Source of the DNA: a bacterium
GTDB taxonomy: Bacteria; Patescibacteriota; Minisyncoccia; JAUYLV01
Direction of reading: 5' to 3'
DNA length: 64,000 nucleotides
Assembly (NCBI GenBank): GCA_030649025.1
Contig: JAUSGO010000004.1
Coordinates: 6,824-70,823 of the forward strand
This document shows positions 1,177 through 19,355 of the stretch, one piece after another. Position 1 is the stretch's first letter; each line of letters starts with the position of its first letter. The notes beneath the pieces are model-generated. The model was not told the DNA's origin and made no database searches. It saw nothing but the letters and a program-made list of their open reading frames with translations. The position numbers and the translations under genes are program-made.

Positions 1177-2571
1177 ATGACCAATGAAGATCTCTGGCAG
1201 ACCGTGTTGGGCGAAATGGAACTTACGCTTTCCAGGGCAAATTTCGTTACCTGGTTTAAAAACACTTCTATTTCTGCTCACGAAAGCGGCGCCGTGATCG
1301 TCAGCGTCCCGAACGGGTTCACACAAGAGTGGTTGGAGAATAAATATAACAAATTTATCCTTAAATCGTTGCGCAAAACATCTCCGGACGTTAAAGAGGT
1401 GAAGTATGTCATAGGCTCCTACAGTCCGCCTCCGCGCCGAGAACACCTTGATGTCTCCCCCGAGACTCAAATGGACAAGGAATCTTTTGCCTACGACGAC
1501 CAGCTTAGCGTCGGTGAACTTGAACAGCCGGTTCTGGTAAATAAAGCGAACCTCAATACCCGCTATACCTTTTCTTCGTTTATCGTTGGTTCTTCAAACG
1601 AATTGGCAAACGCAGCTTCCCTCGCCGTTGCAGGAAGCCCCGGTACGGTATACAACCCCCTACTTATCTATGGGGGAGTTGGGCTTGGAAAAACGCATCT
1701 TATGCAGGCGGTCGGAAACGAAATACTCGCAAAGCGCCCCGGAGCGCAAGTTAAGTACATAGCCGCGGAACGTTTTACGACGGAGCTTATCAATTCGCTC
1801 CAAGATAAGCGTATTGAAGAATTTAAACAGCGCTATCGGGCTTGCGATGTGCTTATTATCGACGATATCCAATTTCTTTCCGGAAAAGAAAAGACTCAGG
1901 AGGAGTTTTTTCATACCTTTAATCATCTTTTTGCCAACAATAAACAGATCATCCTTTCTTCCGACCGCCCTCCAAAAGCCATAGGAGGCATCGAGGAGCG
2001 ACTACGGAGCCGTTTTGAGGGCGGCATGGTCGCCGATGTTGGCATACCAGAGCTTGAGATGCGTGTTGCGATTCTAAAGAAAAAATCAGAAGAAAGAAAT
2101 ATTGCGCTTCCCGATGACGTGCTTATGTATATTTCTACGAAAATCCAGAAAAATATTAGAGAGCTCGAGGGAGCGCTTAATAAAATAGCCGCTTACGTAC
2201 AACACACCAAAACAGTTCCTTCTCTTAAAATAGCAGAGAAAATCCTCTCAAGCCTTATAAATCAGCCAAAACGGATGATTTTGGTACGGGATATTATGAA
2301 GGCTGTGTCGGATTTCTACGATATCGGCCTCGATGAAATTGTAAACCAGTGCCGGAGAAAAGAGGTGGTAAGACCGCGACAAATAACCATGTATCTTCTG
2401 CGCGAAGAGCTGCAAAGCTCTTATCCGGCCATTGGAGCCAAGCTCGGCAACAGAGATCATACGACCGTTATGTACGGCTGCGAAAAAATTACAAAAGAAC
2501 TGGAAAACAACCTTACGCTACAGGAAGAGGTCCGGCTCATTCGGGAGCGCCTGTATGCAAACATGGGATAG
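1177..2571 (+). CDS. dnaA: chromosomal replication initiator DnaA
   Basis: Walker A GVGLGKTHLMQAVGNE, Walker B/sensor LIIDDIQFLSGKEKTQEEFFHTFNHL, and a C-terminal DNA-binding domain. Confidence 0.97.
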   Translation: MTNEDLWQTVLGEMELTLSRANFVTWFKNTSISAHESGAVIVSVPNGFTQEWLENKYNKFILKSLRKTSPDVKEVKYVIGSYSPPPRREHLDVSPETQMDKESFAYDDQLSVGELEQPVLVNKANLNTRYTFSSFIVGSSNELANAASLAVAGSPGTVYNPLLIYGGVGLGKTHLMQAVGNEILAKRPGAQVKYIAAERFTTELINSLQDKRIEEFKQRYRACDVLIIDDIQFLSGKEKTQEEFFHTFNHLFANNKQIILSSDRPPKAIGGIEERLRSRFEGGMVADVGIPELEMRVAILKKKSEERNIALPDDVLMYISTKIQKNIRELEGALNKIAAYVQHTKTVPSLKIAEKILSSLINQPKRMILVRDIMKAVSDFYDIGLDEIVNQCRRKEVVRPRQITMYLLREELQSSYPAIGAKLGNRDHTTVMYGCEKITKELENNLTLQEEVRLIRERLYANMG

Positions 2572-2791
2572 AGTGTGTACAAAAAAAATAATTTTATTTT
2601 TCTCTTTTTTTGTTCACTGAAATATTCCGCTTATAGCCAGGCCCTCCACACCTTTATAAAATTCTTACAGTATATTTTTTGTATAAACAGCGATAAAAAA
2701 CTATTTTCCCCTTTTCCACAGCGCATAATAATAATCATTATAAATATTATATATAAAGAAATCTTATTATATATAATACCGGTGTATAACT
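2572..2791. promoter_or_regulatory. predicted oriC / DNA-unwinding element in the dnaA-dnaN spacer
   Basis: 220-nt spacer that is strongly AT-rich (ataataataatcattataaatattatatataaagaaatcttattatatataat), with a DnaA-box-like TTTTCCACA at about 2717-2725. Classical location for oriC. Confidence 0.45.
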
Positions 2792-3889
2792 ATGAAATTT
2801 TCCTGCATCAGATCATATTTTCTAAACGCGGCAAGCTCCGTTGAAAGAATAATAGAAAAAAATAGCACGCTTCCCATTCTTCAAAATATTTTTATTAAAG
2901 TTGAAAAAGGGAAGACCACACTTTCCACGACAAACCTTGAAATAGGCATACATGCTTCATTCCAATCAAAAGCGGACGAGGAAGGATCTTTTACCGTTCC
3001 TGCAAAAACCCTATTGAATTTTCTTATGTATGTGGATACAGAAAAGATAACAGTCCACACAAAAGGAACAAATCTTATTATAAATGCCGGCTCTCATAAG
3101 GCGGACATTAAAGGACTTGACGCAACTAATTTTCCTATCATTCCTGAAATAACCGAAAGCTTTTCTACTTCTCTGCCTGCAGAAGAATTTTTTTCAGCTC
3201 TTTCTTCCCTAACTTTTCTTTCTTCAATGGGAGACCTGCGGCCGGAGCTTGCGGGAGTTTTTTGCAGTTTTGAAAAAAACCAACTGCGCATGGCTGCAAC
3301 AGACAGTTTTCGTCTCGGAGAATTTATTTTAAAAATCCCTACCCCAAAGAAAGAAACGACCTGTATTATACCTACGCGAACCGTAAACGAAATAATCCGC
3401 TTATTCACCGGGGCCGAAGCCGTTACCTTAAAACTAAGTGCCAATCAAATTCTCATCAAAACACAGGAAAAAGAGCTCATCTCCCGCCTCATCGAAGAAA
3501 AATACCCCGATTATACGGCAGTTATTCCGACATCAAGCACAACCAGAACATATCTTAAAAGGGAAGAGTTTATGCAGGCCTTGCGCGCCGCAAGCGTTTT
3601 TAGCGGAAAGACGCGTGAGGTAAAAATTAATATTTTTCCGGAAGAAAAAAAATATATTATAGAAAGCCGCAATGCCGACATAGGAGAACACAAAAGCGAA
3701 ATTTCTTGCGACGGAAACGGAAAAAACGTGACGGTATCGGTTAACTATCAGTATTTCCTTGATGCCCTCGGGAAGATTTCCGACGAAATGATTTCTTTTG
3801 AGAACAACAACGAAACAGACCCCATTCTTCTTAAGGGGCTTGCGGGCGCCGGACCAAGATATATTATTATGCCGTTGCGCTCGTATTAG
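2792..3889 (+). CDS. dnaN: DNA polymerase III beta sliding clamp
   Basis: 365 aa immediately after dnaA. N-terminus MKFSCIRSYFLNAASSVERIIEKNSTLPILQNIFIKVEKG is typical of DnaN. Confidence 0.95.
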   Translation: MKFSCIRSYFLNAASSVERIIEKNSTLPILQNIFIKVEKGKTTLSTTNLEIGIHASFQSKADEEGSFTVPAKTLLNFLMYVDTEKITVHTKGTNLIINAGSHKADIKGLDATNFPIIPEITESFSTSLPAEEFFSALSSLTFLSSMGDLRPELAGVFCSFEKNQLRMAATDSFRLGEFILKIPTPKKETTCIIPTRTVNEIIRLFTGAEAVTLKLSANQILIKTQEKELISRLIEEKYPDYTAVIPTSSTTRTYLKREEFMQALRAASVFSGKTREVKINIFPEEKKYIIESRNADIGEHKSEISCDGNGKNVTVSVNYQYFLDALGKISDEMISFENNNETDPILLKGLAGAGPRYIIMPLRSY

Positions 3890-11001: not shown

Positions 11002-11188
11002 GATGTTAGAAAAGATAGCACACGACCAATCTAAAGACAAGCGAAAGCGTAACAAGGTCTCTTCGCGCTGTCAAATAAAAACTTTTGAATAAAAAACAAT
11101 CCTTGACAATCGTGGCTAATTTGTTAGTCTAATTTCTTCCGGTTCATTGAAATTTAAGAACAAGTTCACAAAGAAGGGGGCGCTTATT

Positions 11189-12388
11189 ATGCATCAAGAA
11201 GTTGCGATAATCGGCTCGGGAATGACGCAGTGTCGGTCGCGGTGGGTCGAGAGAACATTTTGGAACCTTGCACAAGAGGCGGTTGCCGACGCCGTAAAAG
11301 ACGCGGGCATCCATATCAACGAAATAAAGGCCGGTGTTGCGGGTATTTACAACGACATCTTTGAATTTCAGGCAATTCCCGAATCGGGTCTCCAGGGCAT
11401 TGTCGGACTTGCGAACAAGCCTCTGATACGCGTTTCAAACGGTGGGGCAACGGGAGCCTACTCAATGCTTGCGGGCCATAACATGGTCGCAAGCGGCCAG
11501 TATGACCTTGTCGTGGTTTTCGGCGTTGAAAAGGCGCTGGATTGCTATGACTATGAGGCGCGTAGCGCCACACCTGCCGTGGTGCAGACCATTGGTTATT
11601 CGTGGGATCCGTGGTTCGAGCGTCCGCTTGGTGCGCATGCCTCGGAAAGTTACGCGGAGGTTGTACAAGCGTACATGGACGAACATCCAGGAGACCTCGC
11701 TCCGATGGCTCGCGCGAAAGTTGTGGAATTGTTGTGCCAGCACGCGCAGAACAATCCATACGCTCAGCGTCTGGGAGAGAAAGTAACGGCAGACCAAGTG
11801 CTTCGGTCGCGCTACATCGTCTATCCGATCAGGTCGCTTGAGACCTGCGTATACACCGAAGGGGCCTGTGCGCTTATTTTTGCCTCCGAAGACGTGGCAC
11901 GCAGTATGCAACGCATCGGAAAGACCCCCGTCTGGATTTCTGGCGTCGGCGCGGCAAATGAGCCGTATTTTGTGGGACGCGATATCAGCCGCTATAAAGT
12001 CCTGCATCGCATCTATTCCGACTATCTTGCCACAAAGCAGGCTCTTGAGATGGCGCATCTTTCCATTAACGACATTCAGATCATTGAGCTGCACGATGCG
12101 TACATTCCGCAGTTCATGATAACGCTTGCCGAGATGGGTGTTACACCGCTTGGTCGGGCAAATGACCTAGTGGAAGAAGGTATTATTATGCCCGGCGGAC
12201 GCCTCTTGGTAAATCCTTCCGGAGGTCTTGTCTTCGGCGGCCACTTTGTGGGCGGCTCGAACATGATGTCAACTTGGAGCGTGATGCGTGAATTCCGCGA
12301 ACGCAATCTTCAGTTTGGCATGATTCATGGCACGGGCGCATCGCTTTCGATGTATGGCTCCGTATTCGTGCTCGAAAGGAGGTCGTAA
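11189..12388 (+). CDS. thiolase-fold protein (SCP-x/archaeal type) lacking the nucleophilic cysteine; Ltp2-aldolase-like
   Basis: Start MHQEVAIIGSG preceded by the SD agaaggggg. Thiolase N- and C-terminal domains (GQYDLVVVFGVEK; NPSGGLVFGGHFVGGS). The position of the nucleophilic Cys reads RVSNGGATGA (Cys replaced by Gly), and no Cys lies near the C-terminal acid/base position. Confidence 0.8.
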   Translation: MHQEVAIIGSGMTQCRSRWVERTFWNLAQEAVADAVKDAGIHINEIKAGVAGIYNDIFEFQAIPESGLQGIVGLANKPLIRVSNGGATGAYSMLAGHNMVASGQYDLVVVFGVEKALDCYDYEARSATPAVVQTIGYSWDPWFERPLGAHASESYAEVVQAYMDEHPGDLAPMARAKVVELLCQHAQNNPYAQRLGEKVTADQVLRSRYIVYPIRSLETCVYTEGACALIFASEDVARSMQRIGKTPVWISGVGAANEPYFVGRDISRYKVLHRIYSDYLATKQALEMAHLSINDIQIIELHDAYIPQFMITLAEMGVTPLGRANDLVEEGIIMPGGRLLVNPSGGLVFGGHFVGGSNMMSTWSVMREFRERNLQFGMIHGTGASLSMYGSVFVLERRS

Positions 12389-12389
12389 C

Positions 12390-13445
12390 ATGGCAACCGA
12401 GAAAAAATTCGTCATTCCGCCAGCCATGCTACCCGAAGAGGGTATGCACGAGGTTGTGGGAAGAGACGGGGAGACGTATCTTGTCCGAAACGATGCAATG
12501 TTCACCGGCATACAGCATGCCCAGGGGGAATTTTCCGCATTCTTCCTTGCTCTGCGCGATGAGTGCCGCATCTTCGGGCACCGATGTCCGAGTTGTAGAC
12601 ATATCATCGTGCCGCCATTCGAGAAGCTCTGTCCTCCGTGCAATTTCGAGAAAATGACAAAAGAGTACGTGCAGGACGTCGGGATAACCGTAGCGACGCC
12701 CGTCATTACTGTTTTTGCTCCGGCGCGATTCAAGGAAGAAGTTCCGTTTGCGACCGGTAGAGTATACTTAGCCACAGAAGACCACAACTTTGCCGACACA
12801 GCCCTGTTTCTGCGCATGCAGACAACCAAGGGCGCTATTCGTCCGGGGATATTTGGAAAAGAAACTCCGGTGAAAATCGTGTTCCGTGATGTGCGGCGTG
12901 GCGAGATTCGCGATATCTTTGCGGTTCCGCAATCGGAACTTACCGAGACGCAAATAGCCAAAAGCCCGCTCTTGGAAAGCGACCTTGAGTGGAACAGGGT
13001 TGAGGAGCCTCATTGGACCGCAACACCTGAACGCATGGAGGCGCGTCAAAAAGTAGCCAATGGATTTAAGCTTCTTGGCGAACGCATCGCCGCAAGCTCT
13101 CGCGCAACAAAGGACCTGGCAAACTGGAAACGTAATATCGTGGTTCATACCGGCGGCGGAACGTTCTGGTTTGCTATTCAGGACGGAACGCTTGCCGTGC
13201 ATGATGGGCCCTTCTATAGCAATCTTTATGGCGCGGCAGATCTTGTGCTGACCATTGAAGAGCCTGCACTGTTGCTTCATTGGGTAGAGGACGCACTCAA
13301 CACAAGCGGAGAGGGACTGACCAGTCCTCCTCTGACTGACTTTGTCATCGAGGGAACGCTCTTGCTCAACAAGACAGAGCTTGAGACGATCACGCGGCTC
13401 GACCGCATAACCCGTTCGCTTCGCCGGGACGCAAACAAAAAGTAA
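12390..13445 (+). CDS. DUF35 (zinc-ribbon + OB fold) protein fused to a C-terminal SCP2 sterol-carrier-like domain
   Basis: Strong SD aaggagg 8 nt upstream. 4-Cys ribbon CPSCRH...CPPC followed by an OB-like segment. C-terminal TFWFAIQDG...AADLVLTIEEPALLLHWVED...FVIEGTLLLNKTELE matches the SCP2 pattern. Confidence 0.7.
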   Translation: MATEKKFVIPPAMLPEEGMHEVVGRDGETYLVRNDAMFTGIQHAQGEFSAFFLALRDECRIFGHRCPSCRHIIVPPFEKLCPPCNFEKMTKEYVQDVGITVATPVITVFAPARFKEEVPFATGRVYLATEDHNFADTALFLRMQTTKGAIRPGIFGKETPVKIVFRDVRRGEIRDIFAVPQSELTETQIAKSPLLESDLEWNRVEEPHWTATPERMEARQKVANGFKLLGERIAASSRATKDLANWKRNIVVHTGGGTFWFAIQDGTLAVHDGPFYSNLYGAADLVLTIEEPALLLHWVEDALNTSGEGLTSPPLTDFVIEGTLLLNKTELETITRLDRITRSLRRDANKK

Positions 13446-13572
13446 CTTCTTGGCGCACTTTCCGTGCGCCTTTTTATTTCGCAAAACACATTGACGGTCC
13501 GTTGGCGCAATGCTAAACGGTATTATATATGGCTCTTTTATAATTTTTGCATCATTCCATCGGAGGGATCTC

Positions 13573-15552
13573 ATGACGAAAGACCAATTTGACTGGATGC
13601 CGACCAAAACGCATCTGCAAGATTCGCGCATCGGGAGCTTTATGCAGAAACACGGTATCGCAGACTTCAGGAAGCTTATAGAAAAATCGAATGCCGATGT
13701 ATCTTGGTTCTGGACCGCCGCACTGGAAGATCTCGGATTCGAGTGGCATACGCCGTATCATGCGCTTTTTGACGACTCGCTGGGAATGCCGTGGGTAAAG
13801 TGGTTTTTGGGCGGGAGGCTCAACATCGTCCATCACTGTCTGGACCGCCATCTTCGCGACGGAAAATCCAAAAAAGATGCTCTTGTCTGGGAGGGAGAGG
13901 ATGGTCTGATCCGCAAAATCACATATGGAGAACTCGCGCATTTGGTAGAAAAAATTTCTGCGGCTATGACGAGCGTCGGGGTGGCGAAGGGTGATGTTGT
14001 TGCAATGTGCATGGACCTCACCATTGAAGCGGTTGCTGTCATGTTCGCCTCCTTTAAAATAGGCGCAACGTGCCTTCAGACCGGAACGTGGCACGCGCCC
14101 GCGGAGCTTGCCGAAACTTTGCGTCGCGGTGCTCCAAAGATGCTATTTATTCACGAAAGTTTGCGTCGCGGAGGAGAAGAAAAAAGTCTGCAGGCGGCGA
14201 TTGAATCCATAGGATCCGACAGTACGTTGCCCGTAACCGTCGTAGTTGTGCCAAGGATTGGCGCAAGCAAGGAAGAACGAGAAAGCGTTTCAGGTCCTTC
14301 CGGCGGGCGTATAAATAAATTTGGAATTCTGCTGGCGTCCGCAGAGAATAAGCCCGCTGTTAAAACACTGGCACTTGACGCGGAGACGCCGTCGCTCATC
14401 CTTTTTTCTTCCGGCACGACCGGGCGCCCCAAGGCCATTGTCCATACTCACGGAGGAGCACTCGCACAGGTTGTAAAGGAGGTGGGATACGCTTTTGACT
14501 GCCGCGAAAACGACGTTTTCTGCTGGACGACAAATCTTGGATGGATGATGGCGCCATGGGAAATAATCGGAACGATGTTCTTTGGCGCTACGCTGGTCCT
14601 TATCGAAGGATCTTGCGCGTACCCGACGCCGCACCGAATCTTTGAAATCATCCAGCGGCAGCGCATCTCCATCTTAGGCACAACGCCCGGCCACCTTCAG
14701 AAACTGCGGGACTGCTCCGAGCAGTACGGTCGGCATGATCTTTCGAGCCTTAGGATCCTTGGCTCCACTGGAAAAGTTCTTGACGCAGAACTTTGGAGCT
14801 GGTTCTTCACGACATTTGGAGACAAGAAGCTTCCCATCGTCAATATATTCGGCGGCACCGAGGTGCTTGGATGCCTTGGGTCCGCTCTTCCCATTATGCC
14901 CCTTAAGGCAGGAACGGTCGGGATGGCGGCTCTTGGAACTGGTTCAGACGTTTGTGATGATGGAGGAAATTCTGTCCGCGGACAGGCGGGAGATGTGGTT
15001 TGCCGCTCCCCTATTCCTTCCATGACCAGGAGCTTTTTCGGAGATCCTCAGGGATATTTAGATGCCTATTTCTCTCATGGGACGCATCTTTGGTGGCATG
15101 GCGACCGGGCGATCATTGACGAGGATGGTCTCTGGTTCCATCTCGGGAGATCGGATGATCTTATTATAAGGGATGGGGTGAAACATGATCCGGTAAAAAT
15201 TGAGAGCGCGCTCAAGGCATTTCCCGGACCACCGCGTATTCGGGACGTCGCCGCGATAAGCACGACCGACAAGAACGGTCACGACCGCATCGTTTGTTTC
15301 GTCGTAATAGACGGGGCATTCGTGGAAAATGTGAAGGAATTTTTGCACGATGTGCGGGCCCACACGAAAATAACCTATGGAGCGCTCGGACAGCCCGATG
15401 AGGTTTATGTCGTCAGAGAGCTTCCGGTGAACCAGGCAAACAAGGTGCCGCACAAGGCATTACGGCTTATGCTTGAAGGAAAGGATGTGGGCGAAGTAGC
15501 GCTACAGAATCCTTGGGCACTTGAAGAAATACGCAGGGCGCTGAATTGTTAA
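13573..15552 (+). CDS. AMP-forming acyl-CoA (acetyl-CoA-like) synthetase
   Basis: Start MTKDQF after the SD ggaggg. WFLGGRLNIVHHCLDRHL, AMP-binding motif ILFSSGTTGRPKAIVHTHGG, 659 aa. Confidence 0.85.
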   Translation: MTKDQFDWMPTKTHLQDSRIGSFMQKHGIADFRKLIEKSNADVSWFWTAALEDLGFEWHTPYHALFDDSLGMPWVKWFLGGRLNIVHHCLDRHLRDGKSKKDALVWEGEDGLIRKITYGELAHLVEKISAAMTSVGVAKGDVVAMCMDLTIEAVAVMFASFKIGATCLQTGTWHAPAELAETLRRGAPKMLFIHESLRRGGEEKSLQAAIESIGSDSTLPVTVVVVPRIGASKEERESVSGPSGGRINKFGILLASAENKPAVKTLALDAETPSLILFSSGTTGRPKAIVHTHGGALAQVVKEVGYAFDCRENDVFCWTTNLGWMMAPWEIIGTMFFGATLVLIEGSCAYPTPHRIFEIIQRQRISILGTTPGHLQKLRDCSEQYGRHDLSSLRILGSTGKVLDAELWSWFFTTFGDKKLPIVNIFGGTEVLGCLGSALPIMPLKAGTVGMAALGTGSDVCDDGGNSVRGQAGDVVCRSPIPSMTRSFFGDPQGYLDAYFSHGTHLWWHGDRAIIDEDGLWFHLGRSDDLIIRDGVKHDPVKIESALKAFPGPPRIRDVAAISTTDKNGHDRIVCFVVIDGAFVENVKEFLHDVRAHTKITYGALGQPDEVYVVRELPVNQANKVPHKALRLMLEGKDVGEVALQNPWALEEIRRALNC

Positions 15553-15620: not shown

Positions 15621-15652
15621 CGGCGCACACCACTGCGCCGCTTTTCTTTTTC
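15621..15652 (+). terminator. rho-independent terminator (ggcgcacaccactgcgcc + gcttttcttttt)
   Basis: GC stem plus T-run directly after the synthetase gene. Confidence 0.6.
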
Positions 15653-15795: not shown

Positions 15796-16401
15796 ATGTC
15801 CGGTGACGCTTCCCAAAAAGAAAAAGAGCTTTACAGCAAATTCAAAAATGCCTATGAAGCACATGAAAAACGTGTATGGGAAATTGAAAAAATCATGGCC
15901 AGGCTTAGCCAGGCAAAAAAAGAAGGGAGAAAAGATCCAGAAAGAGAACGGCAGCGCGAGGAAGCTTCTGCTCTTGTCCAAAAAGAGCTTGACGTCATCC
16001 AGCGGCTTGTTTTAGAGGCAAAAGAAGCGCTGGGTTCGCCAAAAAGCTTTCTCGGCGAGTCGGTTGATGCGAACGGGCTTACCTCGACAATTAGAAAACT
16101 CATTGAGCGGGAAGCGATTGAAAAGGCTGACCTCGCGTTTCCCTACACATTTCGAACAGCTCTTCTTAACGCCTTTCTGGAACGCGAAAAGCAAACAAGG
16201 GCATCGATTTATAAAAAACATGTTCGTAAGGGGTTCGGAAGTTCCGTTGAGAGTCTTATAGAGGAAGAACAGCAGAAAAACGAAGCCTATAGAAAACAAC
16301 TCATGGATAAGTATCCGGACCTTCTATCCCCTAGTGATGTCGAGCTATTCAGCATGGCCTTTAAGCGCCGCATGGCTCGACATGGCGAAGAGGCCGTTTA
16401 A
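15796..16401 (+). CDS. hypothetical coiled-coil protein
   Basis: 201-aa ORF, charged and helical; no family recognised. Confidence 0.45.
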   Translation: MSGDASQKEKELYSKFKNAYEAHEKRVWEIEKIMARLSQAKKEGRKDPERERQREEASALVQKELDVIQRLVLEAKEALGSPKSFLGESVDANGLTSTIRKLIEREAIEKADLAFPYTFRTALLNAFLEREKQTRASIYKKHVRKGFGSSVESLIEEEQQKNEAYRKQLMDKYPDLLSPSDVELFSMAFKRRMARHGEEAV

Positions 16402-16414
16402 GTCGTAGATTATT

Positions 16415-16487
16415 GGGCGCATAGCTCAGCGATTAGAGCATCCGCCTTACACGCGGAGGGTCCTAGGTTTAAATCCTAGTGCGCCCA
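16415..16487 (+). tRNA. tRNA-Val (anticodon TAC)
   Basis: Manual fold: acceptor GGGCGCA/TGCGCCC, D-stem GCTC/GAGC, anticodon stem TCCGC/GCGGA with loop cTTACac, T-stem CCTAG/CTAGG. T-loop TTTAAAT is non-canonical. Confidence 0.75.
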
Positions 16488-16541
16488 CAATAAATTGTTC
16501 CATGTGAAACGTTAGTGTGTTTTTCTATGAAACAGGGCCAC

Positions 16542-17103: not shown

Positions 17104-17174
17104 GCGGGTATCGTATACCGGTATTATGCCACCTTGCCAAGGTGGAGAAACGGGTTCAATTCCCGTTACCCGCT
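17104..17174 (+). tRNA. tRNA-Gly (anticodon GCC), no encoded CCA
   Basis: Manual fold: acceptor GCGGGTA/TACCCGC, anticodon stem CCACC/GGTGG with loop ttGCCaa, T-stem ACGGG/CCCGT with loop TTCAATT. D-stem is weak (3 pairs) but the D-loop contains GG. Confidence 0.7.
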
Positions 17175-17292
17175 CACCAAAATAAAACTGCCCCTTGTGA
17201 GTAGTTTTATTTTGGTCGAACTTGGGGAATTAAAGGGAGGTCCGGTGGACTTCCCAGGTTTTTCTGAGCCGGAGGAACGAGGAGAGGAAAAG

Positions 17293-18051: not shown

Positions 18052-18630
18052 ATGGCTGGTTGGTCAGGAATTTACACAAATGATCAGGAGGTTGCCAGAA
18101 GCCTTATTCGGCAACTTACTGAAATGGGGTTGGTGATAGAAAGCAGAGCGTCAACTGACCCGAGCATCTCACTTTGGAAGAACGGGGTCTGGTTTTGGCT
18201 GGATCTGCCGGGTTACTTCCATCCTCTTTCCAAGAAACTGTTTGAGCTTGCGCGCGACATTATGCAGCCGAGGGAAAAACAAGAAGTATACATAAGCCCG
18301 AAAGACCTGCAAAGTCAAAACGCCGACAAGTCACAGGAGGGCGCGGGAGCCGTGCTGGTCTATCAGGCTGCCAACAACACTACTGAAAGCGGGTTCTACG
18401 TTGAGTTCGCCGACGGGGCGGAAACCGAGGCCCACTTCTTTGAGAACCCAGAGGATAAATGCAGTGATGGCTCAAATGAGATTGCCGCAGAATACTTCCT
18501 GAAACGCCACAATCTGGAAATTCACACGGACTTTCCCGATAACTGGAGAGTCGTAGAAGATTATGAACTGACAGAAAAAGCTCTACAAGAAGTGGAAAGA
18601 GAACATAGTTCTATACCAGCGGCGCGATAA
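18052..18630 (+). CDS. hypothetical protein (192 aa) with canonical promoter and SD, flanked by 25-bp direct repeats
   Basis: ORF with strong translation signals; no family recognised. Confidence 0.5.
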   Translation: MAGWSGIYTNDQEVARSLIRQLTEMGLVIESRASTDPSISLWKNGVWFWLDLPGYFHPLSKKLFELARDIMQPREKQEVYISPKDLQSQNADKSQEGAGAVLVYQAANNTTESGFYVEFADGAETEAHFFENPEDKCSDGSNEIAAEYFLKRHNLEIHTDFPDNWRVVEDYELTEKALQEVEREHSSIPAAR

Positions 18631-18833: not shown

Positions 18834-19229
18834 TTAATGAATTCGGACGGTTACCCTGAAAGATCTTGTCGGTGATTTTTGTTTTCCGAACGGCCGCCGA
18901 TACTCCAGCTCAACCACGCAAGAGTCTTTCTTCTTGGCTTTGAGCCTGAAAATCTCCACGGTCTTCATGTTGGGGTATCCCTGCTCCGGCTCCCGGAGAT
19001 TCTTGCCGACAAACTCCAGCAATCTCTTATCGTATTCGGCAAGTTGCCACGAGTAGCCGGTTCCCGGTTGACCTGGAAGTTCAATGACCAAAAAACTTCC
19101 TTTTGCCACCTCAACGGTCTTCCCGTTGTCGGCCTCCGTAACCAGCGCCGTTCCGGGCTCCGAAGCGATTGAAAAAGAGCAAATTGACAGCAAGGCGAGA
19201 AAAAGAACGGAAACAAAAAGTCTACTCAT
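18834..19229 (-). CDS. secreted chagasin-family (I42) cysteine-peptidase inhibitor
   Basis: Signal peptide MSRLFVSVLFLALLSICSFSIA, then ...GSFLVIELPGQPGTGYSWQL, which is chagasin/ICP-like. Start taken at the internal Met because the longer ORF runs into the repeat at 19322-19355. Confidence 0.65.
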   Translation of the reverse strand: MSRLFVSVLFLALLSICSFSIASEPGTALVTEADNGKTVEVAKGSFLVIELPGQPGTGYSWQLAEYDKRLLEFVGKNLREPEQGYPNMKTVEIFRLKAKKKDSCVVELEYRRPFGKQKSPTRSFRVTVRIH

Positions 19230-19321
19230 TGGGGCCTCCCTCCTGCGCAGAAAATTGAAGAACACCAGAAGAATATCATAAATATGTGGACATAGTCGAG
19301 CGCGAGAGCAAAAACGTTCAC

Positions 19322-19355
19322 ATGCCACCTTGCCAAGGTGGAGAAACGGGTTCAA
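19322..19355. repeat. 34-bp exact copy of the tRNA-Gly anticodon-arm-to-T-loop segment (ATGCCACCTTGCCAAGGTGGAGAAACGGGTTCAAT)
   Basis: Identical to 17128-17161 inside the tRNA-Gly. It ends exactly at the T-loop, where the fragment at 17293 begins. Confidence 0.85.

Follow-up and report, generated by a model that had tools for sequence, protein, structure and literature searches.

A thiolase-fold protein without catalytic cysteines and its DUF35-SCP2 partner in a Patescibacteriota genome: a putative module for carbon-carbon cleavage of CoA thioesters

Complexes between thiolase-fold enzymes and DUF35 proteins have recently been found to carry out a diverse range of chemistry, including Claisen condensation, thiolysis, Friedel-Crafts acylation and retro-aldol cleavage. 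A module that encodes proteins of this kind is located in a 64,000-nucleotide stretch of DNA from a bacterium of the Patescibacteriota (GenBank assembly GCA_030649025.1, contig JAUSGO010000004.1, positions 6,824 to 70,823 of the forward strand), the whole of which is referred to as the window. The module is made up of three plus-strand genes, whose products of 399, 351 and 659 amino acids are 100% matches to the NCBI gene models. Gene 1 encodes an SCP2-type thiolase-fold protein that lacks both catalytic cysteines, gene 2 a fusion of DUF35 with an SCP2 domain, and gene 3 an AMP-forming acyl-CoA ligase. In architecture, genes 1 and 2 (referred to as the pair) fall into one class with the archaeal thiolase-DUF35, BbsAB, Ltp2-ChsH2 and Sal-Shy complexes. 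As a putative function we propose, with somewhat less than even confidence, that a complex of the products of the pair cleaves a 3-hydroxyacyl-CoA by a retro-aldol reaction.

Two of the described complexes are aldolases. Ltp2, the aldolase for the steroid C3 side chain, functions only when complexed with a DUF35 domain, as in ChsH2 (PDB 6OK1), and Sal cleaves the bile-acid C5 side chain together with the DUF35 protein Shy (PDB 9MYR). Both Sal and Ltp2 carry a glycine at the position of the thiolase nucleophile, and the substrate hydroxyl is bound by the backbone NH of this residue (PMC12329534). In Ltp2, Tyr294 (the base) and His296 (oxyanion) of a YDHF motif are joined by Tyr344 (the acid), while Sal uses Tyr302 and Cys304 of a YDCY motif with Gln352, and its C304A variant is inactive (PMC12329534). 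SCP2-thiolases have an HDCF motif plus the histidine of a GH motif (PMC12329534), and the two histidines polarise the thioester and stabilise the enolate (PMC3406046). The DUF35-associated true thiolases keep a CxS nucleophile motif and the cysteine of HDCF, and each has a stand-alone DUF35 subunit of about 130 residues that carries no SCP2 domain. The archaeal complex requires an HMG-CoA synthase (HMG, 3-hydroxy-3-methylglutaryl), of which the module has none. In peroxisomal SCPx (SCP2-thiolase type 1, PDB 6HSJ, the best sequence match of gene 1), thiolase fold and SCP2 also form one functional unit, although there SCP2 is joined to the thiolase, a true Cys/HDCF enzyme without DUF35. Cys-less members of the SCP2-thiolase-like branch are known in TbSLP from Trypanosoma, with a YDCF motif and no DUF35 partner, and in MsTLP1 from Mycobacterium, a monomeric protein with a fused β-barrel that has lost all thiolase fingerprints.

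Gene 1 matches the Pfam models Thiolase_N, Thiolase_C and Thiolase_C_1. The solved proteins nearest to it in sequence are zebrafish SCP2-thiolase (E-value 4e-29) and the archaeal DUF35-associated acetoacetyl-CoA thiolase (1e-26), together with a Pyrococcus thiolase, BbsB and PhlC, whereas Ltp2 (5e-17) and Sal (5e-13) are more distant. Its AlphaFold2 (AF2) model has a pLDDT of 86 and gives the same archaeal thiolase as the top Foldseek match (6et9_C, 1.7e-34), with Ltp2 at rank 28 and Sal at rank 32. The DUF35-associated true thiolases are its closest folds (Foldseek ranks 1 and 10) and among its closest sequences (phmmer 1e-26 and 8e-21). As in these enzymes, the His and Asp of the HDxF motif are retained in gene 1 together with GHx. 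Model confidence is low (pLDDT below 50) only at residues 117-149 and 57-63 (approximately 11537-11635 and 11357-11377). These segments include the family-invariant D118, D121, E144 and R145 and may need contact with the DUF35-SCP2 partner in order to fold.

Both cysteines of the thiolase active site are replaced. In three independent HMMER alignments to solved thiolases, G86 (codon 11444-11446) sits under the catalytic cysteine, with rvsnGgatga in gene 1 against nvnnnCstgs and rveaaCasgs, and an alignment with 11 true thiolases made with MAFFT places it likewise. Where the DUF35-associated thiolases have CxS, gene 1 reads G86-A87-T88. The HDCF motif of SCP2-thiolases corresponds to H302-D303-A304-Y305, so that A304 takes the place of the acid/base cysteine. 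With neither a nucleophilic nor an acid/base cysteine, the covalent ping-pong cycle of thiolases is impossible for gene 1. The histidines are nevertheless kept, and conservation is strict: across 39 family members with 55-100% identity, G85-G86-A87-T88-G89, H302-D303-A304, N342 and G351-H352-F-V-G-G-S357-N358 are invariant. Within HDxF the His and Asp are retained, x is always Ala and the fourth residue is Phe or Tyr, and GHx is preserved as G351-H352. Since the cysteines are invariantly Gly and Ala while H302, D303, N342, H352 and S357 do not vary either, the active site appears to be still in use. Tyr54 and Tyr222, which are conserved in Cys-less clades with both histidines (referred to as H/H clades) and absent from true thiolases, are on that pattern of conservation candidate acid/base residues.

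Comparison with the two aldolases sets gene 1 apart from both. It shares with Ltp2 and Sal the Gly at the nucleophile position and the DUF35 partner, but the catalytic positions of these enzymes read His302, Ala304 and His352, in place of Tyr294, His296 and Tyr344 in Ltp2 and of Tyr302, Cys304 and the Gln at the GH position in Sal, whose YDCY corresponds to HDAY. For Ltp2 this mapping is given by match coordinates (6ok1 chain 276-350 against query 11-86) and by spacing, which place H302 opposite Y294. The second site lies 50 residues after the first position of the motif in every case: H302-H352 in gene 1, H306-H356 in zebrafish SCP2-thiolase, 294-344 in Ltp2 and 302-352 in Sal. Judged by these alignments, gene 1 has the histidines of thiolases, not the tyrosines of the aldolases, and is without the cysteine that Sal needs. 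In contrast to TbSLP and MsTLP1, its family keeps both HDx[FY] and GH.

A first-pass annotation, made from the DNA letters alone, had described gene 1 as aligning with archaeal and SCP-x thiolases, with Gly for the nucleophilic Cys and no Cys at the C-terminal acid/base position. All three statements are borne out, and no alignment put a cysteine at the nucleophile position. It had also called the protein Ltp2-like and the loss of cysteine a hallmark of Ltp2 aldolases, and had suggested inspecting the active site for the tyrosines of Ltp2. Family membership does not follow, as those positions hold His302 and His352 and Ltp2 is farther away than the true thiolases. Nor is the double loss specific to Ltp2, as several distinct Cys-less patterns surround the gene 1 family. 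When 1.8 billion cluster representatives are searched with a profile, the whole family forms one 50% cluster (704 bits), and the next full-length match scores 341 bits. Aligning 40 of the matches that follow the family cluster and reading positions 86, 302, 304 and 352 separates true thiolases (C/H/C/H), a large set with Tyr and Asn (G/Y/A or P/N) and several H/H Cys-less clades (G or A/H/A, P, L or I/H), among which the gene 1 family falls. Gene 1 is not a member of the Ltp2 or Sal groups and belongs to a distinct Cys-less clade of DUF35-associated SCP2-type thiolase-fold proteins. The set with Tyr and Asn (matches P0264-P0316) is a large Cys-less SCP2-type thiolase-like group with Tyr at the first motif position (YDAF, YNPF) and Asn for the GH histidine, a pattern nearer to Ltp2 and Sal than gene 1 is, and identical to neither.

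The identity of gene 2 was resolved only by family-wide scanning and structure prediction. Searched alone against Pfam, NCBIfam and PDB sequences, the protein gives nothing usable (DUF5332 at 0.0046, 6esq_E at 0.46); its Pfam match to zf-ChsH2 reaches 11.6 of the 23.2 bits required (E-value 0.25), and there is none to OB_ChsH2_C or SCP2. Among 36 members of its family, however, 34 match zf-ChsH2 in Pfam at E≤1 (best 8e-7) and 14 match SCP2 (best 6e-4). The family alignment contains four invariant cysteines in a CxxC...CxxC arrangement (C66, C69, C81 and C84), and the AF2 model (pLDDT 82) matches both DUF35 and SCP2 domains in fold searches, with a rubredoxin-like zinc ribbon of the C4 type, an OB fold and an SCP2 α/β fold in that order. 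The earlier proposal that the 351-residue neighbour is a DUF35-SCP2 fusion is therefore upheld by the family scans and the model. Of the domain searches that had been suggested alongside it, those for Thiolase_N, Thiolase_C and AMP-binding succeed, while DUF35 and SCP2 fall short of the threshold in the window protein and emerge across its family.

All solved DUF35 domains similar to gene 2 occur as subunits in complex with a thiolase-fold enzyme. The zinc site is C4 in gene 2, compared with C3H1 in Shy, and the DUF35 of the Ltp2 system is fused to a MaoC hydratase and that of gene 2 to SCP2. Searches of the literature on DUF35 with SCP2, in bacteria of the candidate phyla radiation (CPR) or in anaerobes, yielded no account of the DUF35-SCP2 architecture or of the family, and this fusion partner is taken to be novel.

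The pair is conserved as a unit. A scan of 185,579 species genomes gave 127 relatives, the best 80 of which all come from metagenome-assembled genomes (MAGs) of uncultured organisms. Carriers among these 80 include Terriglobia and other Acidobacteriota, CPR (Yanofsky-, Nealson-, Niyogi- and Saccharibacteria), Nitrospinota, Desulfobacterales, Syntrophaceae, Thermoanaerobaculia, Dehalococcoidia, Planctomycetota and others, and Tectomicrobia also carry the pair. Their settings range from peat and soil (Terriglobia) and groundwater (CPR) to the sulfate-reducing and syntrophic Deltaproteobacteria. A gene 2 homologue of about 350 residues adjoins the gene 1 homologue in approximately 74 of 81 loci from at least eight phyla, the exceptions being contig ends.

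The neighbourhood of the pair is less uniform. A census at about 70 loci, taking in at most two genes on either side, revealed no gene family common to most of them, with the upstream side essentially random. The identity of the substrate cannot be read from context, although the themes that do recur all concern acyl-CoA metabolism. An ACS-like ligase (of the acetyl-CoA synthetase type) is a recurrent but facultative neighbour that adjoins the pair in three arrangements: downstream of it (pair-ligase) in the window and in a Yanofskybacteria locus (L006), upstream of it with a 10-nt gap (ligase-pair) in Tectomicrobia (L093), and convergent with it together with an acyl-CoA dehydrogenase (ACAD; pair> <ligase ACAD>) in Acidobacteria (L008, L030 and L094). 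In three Terriglobia loci (L007, L009 and L011) the ligase slot is held by a two-subunit (A/B) family I CoA-transferase, and this replacement by an analogous activity ties the making of the CoA ester to the pair. The Terriglobia slot, which lies between the pair and an ACAD of about 550 residues, holds either an ACS-like ligase or a CoA-transferase, always convergent with the pair.

A different operon, which runs TetR-TRAP-ECH-PaaK-like ligase-pair(-ACAD) and includes an enoyl-CoA hydratase (ECH) and a tripartite ATP-independent periplasmic (TRAP) transporter component, is found in L005, L086 and L089; NCBIfam gives only generic, sub-threshold matches for its ECH, PaaK-like ligase, ACAD and TRAP binding protein. 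An ACAD is present within 5 kb of the pair in nine loci and an ECH in six, and no 3-hydroxyacyl-CoA dehydrogenase was found in the Pfam-annotated loci or among the 25 commonest flank families. A hydratase with no 3-hydroxyacyl-CoA dehydrogenase follows the hydratase-then-lyase logic of the steroid side-chain pathway. The steroid-catabolism context itself (the MaoC hydratase ChsH1/H2 and ChsE ACADs) is not present, with no MaoC or steroid genes in the window or the annotated loci. A member of a sister clade (P0250), which is Cys-less, has both histidines and is 35% identical to gene 1, sits in an ECH-thiolase-like-DUF35 arrangement. Its locus (L091, 1-13191) encodes an aldehyde:ferredoxin oxidoreductase, a UbiD-family decarboxylase, the ECH, the thiolase-like protein, an ordinary DUF35 of 153 residues and a three-subunit Mo-hydroxylase, and looks like an anaerobic aromatic-acid pathway.

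These neighbours bear on two further explanations. Decarboxylation of malonyl-, methylmalonyl- or 3-oxoacid-CoA, with a His/His dyad as in ketosynthases and the nucleophile removed as in the KSQ proteins of the ketosynthase-chain length factor (KS-CLF) type, would account for two retained histidines and a lost cysteine, and the Cys-less relative TbSLP does slowly decarboxylate malonyl-CoA (PMC12329534). That rate is very low (0.005 s-1), however, and Sal has no such activity (PMC12329534). A methylmalonyl-CoA-mutase-type B12 subunit lies upstream of the pair in L001 and L054, but this is only two of 84 loci, and the flank census contains no recurrent carboxylase or malonyl-CoA-linked genes near the pair. 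A decarboxylase is considered highly improbable.

That most loci contain no metabolic partner genes would instead suit a non-catalytic, SCPx-like carrier, in which a thiolase-fold pseudoenzyme scaffold supports a DUF35-SCP2 protein that binds and passes on lipids or acyl-CoAs. Both catalytic cysteines are gone, the SCP2 fold binds lipid or acyl-CoA in characterised relatives, and MsTLP1 provides a precedent for an inactive thiolase-like protein (PMC3406046); the genome of the window is minimal, and CPR cells, which depend on scavenged lipids, could benefit from a carrier. Against this stands the strict conservation of H302, D303, N342, H352, S357 and the GGATG loop across phyla, while MsTLP1, unlike the gene 1 family, has lost all thiolase fingerprints (PMC3406046). 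Where context exists, moreover, the pair sits in a same-strand run with ligase, ECH and ACAD, and neither protein is annotated with a signal peptide or membrane segment, although no dedicated prediction was made. A carrier role is accordingly considered rather improbable.

Gene 3 contains the Pfam domains ACAS_N, AMP-binding and AMP-binding_C and aligns over its full length in the PDB with acetyl-CoA synthetase (Acs; 1e-75 to 4e-87) and acetoacetyl-CoA synthetase (AACS; 5e-61). It reaches no NCBIfam cut-off. The best models are acetate-CoA ligase (380 bits, cut-off 639) and acetoacetate-CoA ligase (365 bits, cut-off 657), and scores against the equivalog cut-offs are likewise low (370 bits against 725 for Acs and 320 against 521 for acetoacetate-CoA ligase). 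At the position of the acetate-gate residue Trp414 of S. enterica Acs, gene 3 has Gly427 (codon 14851-14853; 'vdtWWqte' in Acs against 'vniFGgte'), and the motif N[IV]xGGTE is present in all 120 of its best homologues. The gate tryptophan (Trp414 in S. enterica, Trp416 in M. thermautotrophicus) is almost universal in Acs, while glycine occupies the position in medium-chain ligases (PMC10455477). Gene 3 therefore shares its domains with Acs, with AACS and with the synthetases of medium-chain acyl-CoA but has the gate of the last. The loss of the tryptophan makes a plain acetyl-CoA synthetase unlikely, and the predicted pocket suggests an acid larger than acetate.

The near-equal scores on the acetate and acetoacetate models raise the possibility that the module serves acetoacetate instead. 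In such a scheme gene 1 would act as thiolase or Claisen enzyme on a small 3-oxoacyl-CoA, for example acetoacetyl-CoA, using either a relocated nucleophile (Cys15) or direct attack by free CoA, with a second CoA site supplied by the DUF35-SCP2 protein, and an AACS-like ligase or CoA-transferase would complete a module for ketone-body or acetoacetate utilisation. The family I CoA-transferases beside the pair in Terriglobia fit such a route, as does the fact that real thiolases are the closest sequences and folds to gene 1; the retained HDxF and GHx histidines are essential for thiolysis in the DUF35-associated thiolases (PMC12960953). Nevertheless, both catalytic cysteines are invariantly replaced, by Gly and Ala, and both ligase scores lie far below their cut-offs. 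Cys15 is specific to the gene 1 family and invariant within it, but true thiolases and the sister Cys-less His/His clades have Phe at this position, making it an unlikely general catalytic residue; it more probably lines the acyl pocket. No thiolase-superfamily enzyme is known to work without a covalent acyl-enzyme, which also counts against this route, and on balance it is judged unlikely.

Retro-aldol cleavage, the favoured reaction, would be catalysed as follows. We infer that the products of genes 1 and 2 are two subunits of a thiolase-fold/DUF35 complex, and that the most likely chemistry is a non-covalent, enolate-based cleavage or formation of a carbon-carbon bond on a CoA thioester. 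A 3-hydroxyacyl-CoA would be split into acetyl-CoA and an aldehyde or ketone, as by Ltp2 and Sal, with the H302/H352 pair as the putative catalytic residues, perhaps helped by Tyr54 and Tyr222. The SCP2 domain on the DUF35 subunit suggests that the substrate has a hydrophobic moiety, and it would accommodate that portion of the substrate or product, or else the acyl-CoA as such. The ACS-like ligase, its acyl pocket widened by the gate glycine, would supply the CoA thioester by activating a free acid larger than acetate, a role that the CoA-transferase may take in other genomes. This reaction is favoured on three grounds: it is the simplest for a histidine pair and a base, the context contains hydratases but no dehydrogenase, and Ltp2 and Sal provide a precedent.

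Several observations weigh against such a cleavage. The catalytic tyrosines of both characterised thiolase-fold aldolases are absent from gene 1, and His302 and His352 may be no more than an oxyanion hole, leaving no identified general base. Around 60 of 84 loci have unrelated neighbours and an ECH is adjacent in only six, while in the CPR window itself no hydratase or ACAD lies near the module and a terminator-like hairpin splits the ligase from the pair. Membership of the ligase in the short-chain ACS/AACS branch is a poor fit to a lipid pocket of the SCP2 type. One apparent context clue, the 'aromatic ammonia-lyase' beside the pair in L001, is in fact HutH. Finally, every carrier is an uncultured MAG, and the activity of the family is a prediction from genes. 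The L001 neighbour, a 'Lyase_aromatic' match, had been considered as a phenylalanine or tyrosine ammonia-lyase in a cinnamate/coumarate scenario, which was rejected as NCBIfam assigns it to histidine ammonia-lyase HutH (656 bits against a cut-off of 539).

The coordinates of the module and its signals are collected in Table 1. One nucleotide separates the stop codon of gene 1 (12386-12388) from the ATG of gene 2 (12390), and this gap, with the AGGAGG of gene 2 inside the end of gene 1, suggests translational coupling. The start of the ligase gene is that of the NCBI 659-residue model, at 13573; the ATG at 13510 opens the longest open reading frame (ORF) but is not the one this model takes.

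Table 1. Features of the module in window coordinates
Feature	Position	Strand	Basis
Shine-Dalgarno-like GAAGGGGG upstream of gene 1	11173..11180	+	Direct sequence reading; 5/6 vs AGGAGG
Gene 1, SCP2-type thiolase-fold protein without catalytic cysteines, 399 aa	11189..12388	+	Pfam, PDB alignments, AF2
Gene 1 codon C15	11231..11233	+	
Gene 1 codons H302-D303-A304	12092..12100	+	
Gene 1 codon H352	12242..12244	+	
Gene 2 Shine-Dalgarno AGGAGG, within gene 1 end	12377..12382	+	Sequence reading
Gene 2, DUF35-SCP2 fusion, 351 aa	12390..13445	+	Family scans, AF2, fold searches
DUF35 part of gene 2 (C4 zinc ribbon then OB fold), approximately residues 58-182	12561..12935	+	
SCP2-fold domain of gene 2 including long leading helix, approximately residues 213-350	13026..13439	+	
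Intrinsic-terminator-like hairpin GGCGCAC-TTTCC-GTGCGCC plus T-run	13452..13479	+	Scan; hairpin itself 13452-13470
Ligase gene Shine-Dalgarno GGAGGG, 5 nt before ATG	13562..13567	+	Sequence reading
Gene 3, ACS/AACS-family AMP-forming acyl-CoA ligase, 659 aa	13573..15552	+	Pfam, NCBIfam, PDB matches, NCBI gene model
Terminator-like hairpin 3' of ligase gene	15621..15649	+	Scan

The hairpin between gene 2 and the ligase gene has a folding energy of -13.7 kcal/mol (z -3.3), which none of 200 shuffled sequences equalled, and an equivalent layout of hairpin then Shine-Dalgarno sequence lies between the homologues of gene 2 and the ligase in the Yanofskybacteria locus. A single three-gene operon is therefore doubtful; genes 1 and 2 are one unit and the ligase gene is probably transcribed separately. 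Of the first-pass description of an AMP-forming ligase completing the operon, the ligase stands by its Pfam domains, while the operon is called into question by the hairpin and by the facultative adjacency of the ligase elsewhere.

The same annotation had seen in the strong Shine-Dalgarno sequences of all three genes, unlike those of their neighbours, a hint of horizontal acquisition, and both points hold. At least five of the six positions of AGGAGG are matched within -20 to -4 in three of three module genes, compared with 4 of 41 other genes in the window, an approximate count as the starts of the latter were taken from longest ORFs; outside the module the genome of the window is poor in such sites. 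The 399-residue proteins form a tight clade with 76-90% amino acid identity across CPR, Tectomicrobia, Nitrospinota and Acidobacteria/Terriglobia, and in a rough neighbour-joining tree the CPR sequences are a basal grade of that clade. Together, the contrast in Shine-Dalgarno sequences, the identity across phyla and the tree support horizontal acquisition, and the gene pair was probably acquired in this way. GC content is not distinctive as a sign of foreign origin (0.53-0.54 in the module against 0.495 ± 0.035 in the window).

The host is a small-genome, groundwater-type bacterium with a CPR-like gene landscape. By Pfam annotation the rest of the window encodes dnaA, dnaN, a penicillin-binding protein, ndk, fusA-rpsG-rpsL, a ribosomal protein cluster, secY, serine hydroxymethyltransferase, phosphoglycerate kinase, murJ and ddl, with housekeeping functions only and no acyl-CoA genes besides the module in the annotated 64 kb. 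An Rfam scan gave no match in the module and only two tRNAs, both downstream: tRNA-Val(TAC) at 16415-16488 and tRNA-Gly(GCC) at 17104-17175 follow the ligase gene at a distance of less than 1 kb, a possible integration landmark for an acquired module. Two ORFs, at 15796-16401 (201 aa, between the ligase terminator and tRNA-Val) and 18052-18630 (192 aa), have no Pfam match, and a chagasin-family peptidase inhibitor (I42) with a hydrophobic N-terminus is encoded at 18834-19355 on the minus strand. Cumulative GC skew is lowest around 8-10 kb, where gene orientation turns from rpsL-rpsG-fusA (minus) to the module and nearly all downstream genes (plus); dnaA and dnaN are at 1177-3889. The replication origin may be near the intergenic region upstream of the module.

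Thiolase-fold/DUF35 systems thus gain a conserved and phylogenetically widespread member, in which both cysteines are gone, both histidines are kept and the DUF35 protein has an added SCP2 domain, and to which the characterised mechanisms are not directly transferable. It is possible, though doubtful, that the family represents a third catalytic solution for thiolase-fold carbon-carbon cleavage: a Cys-free and Tyr-free 'His/His' lyase or aldolase, whose DUF35 partner brings its own SCP2 delivery domain, and which has spread horizontally among uncultured soil and groundwater bacteria, including CPR with minimal metabolism, where it and the ligase would lead, as a self-contained route, from an exogenous (hydroxy)acid to acetyl-CoA. 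Once worked out, the reaction would assign a function to the 'thiolase family protein / hypothetical protein' pair that recurs in metagenomes, and could also show which carbon source these reduced-genome cells draw from their surroundings.

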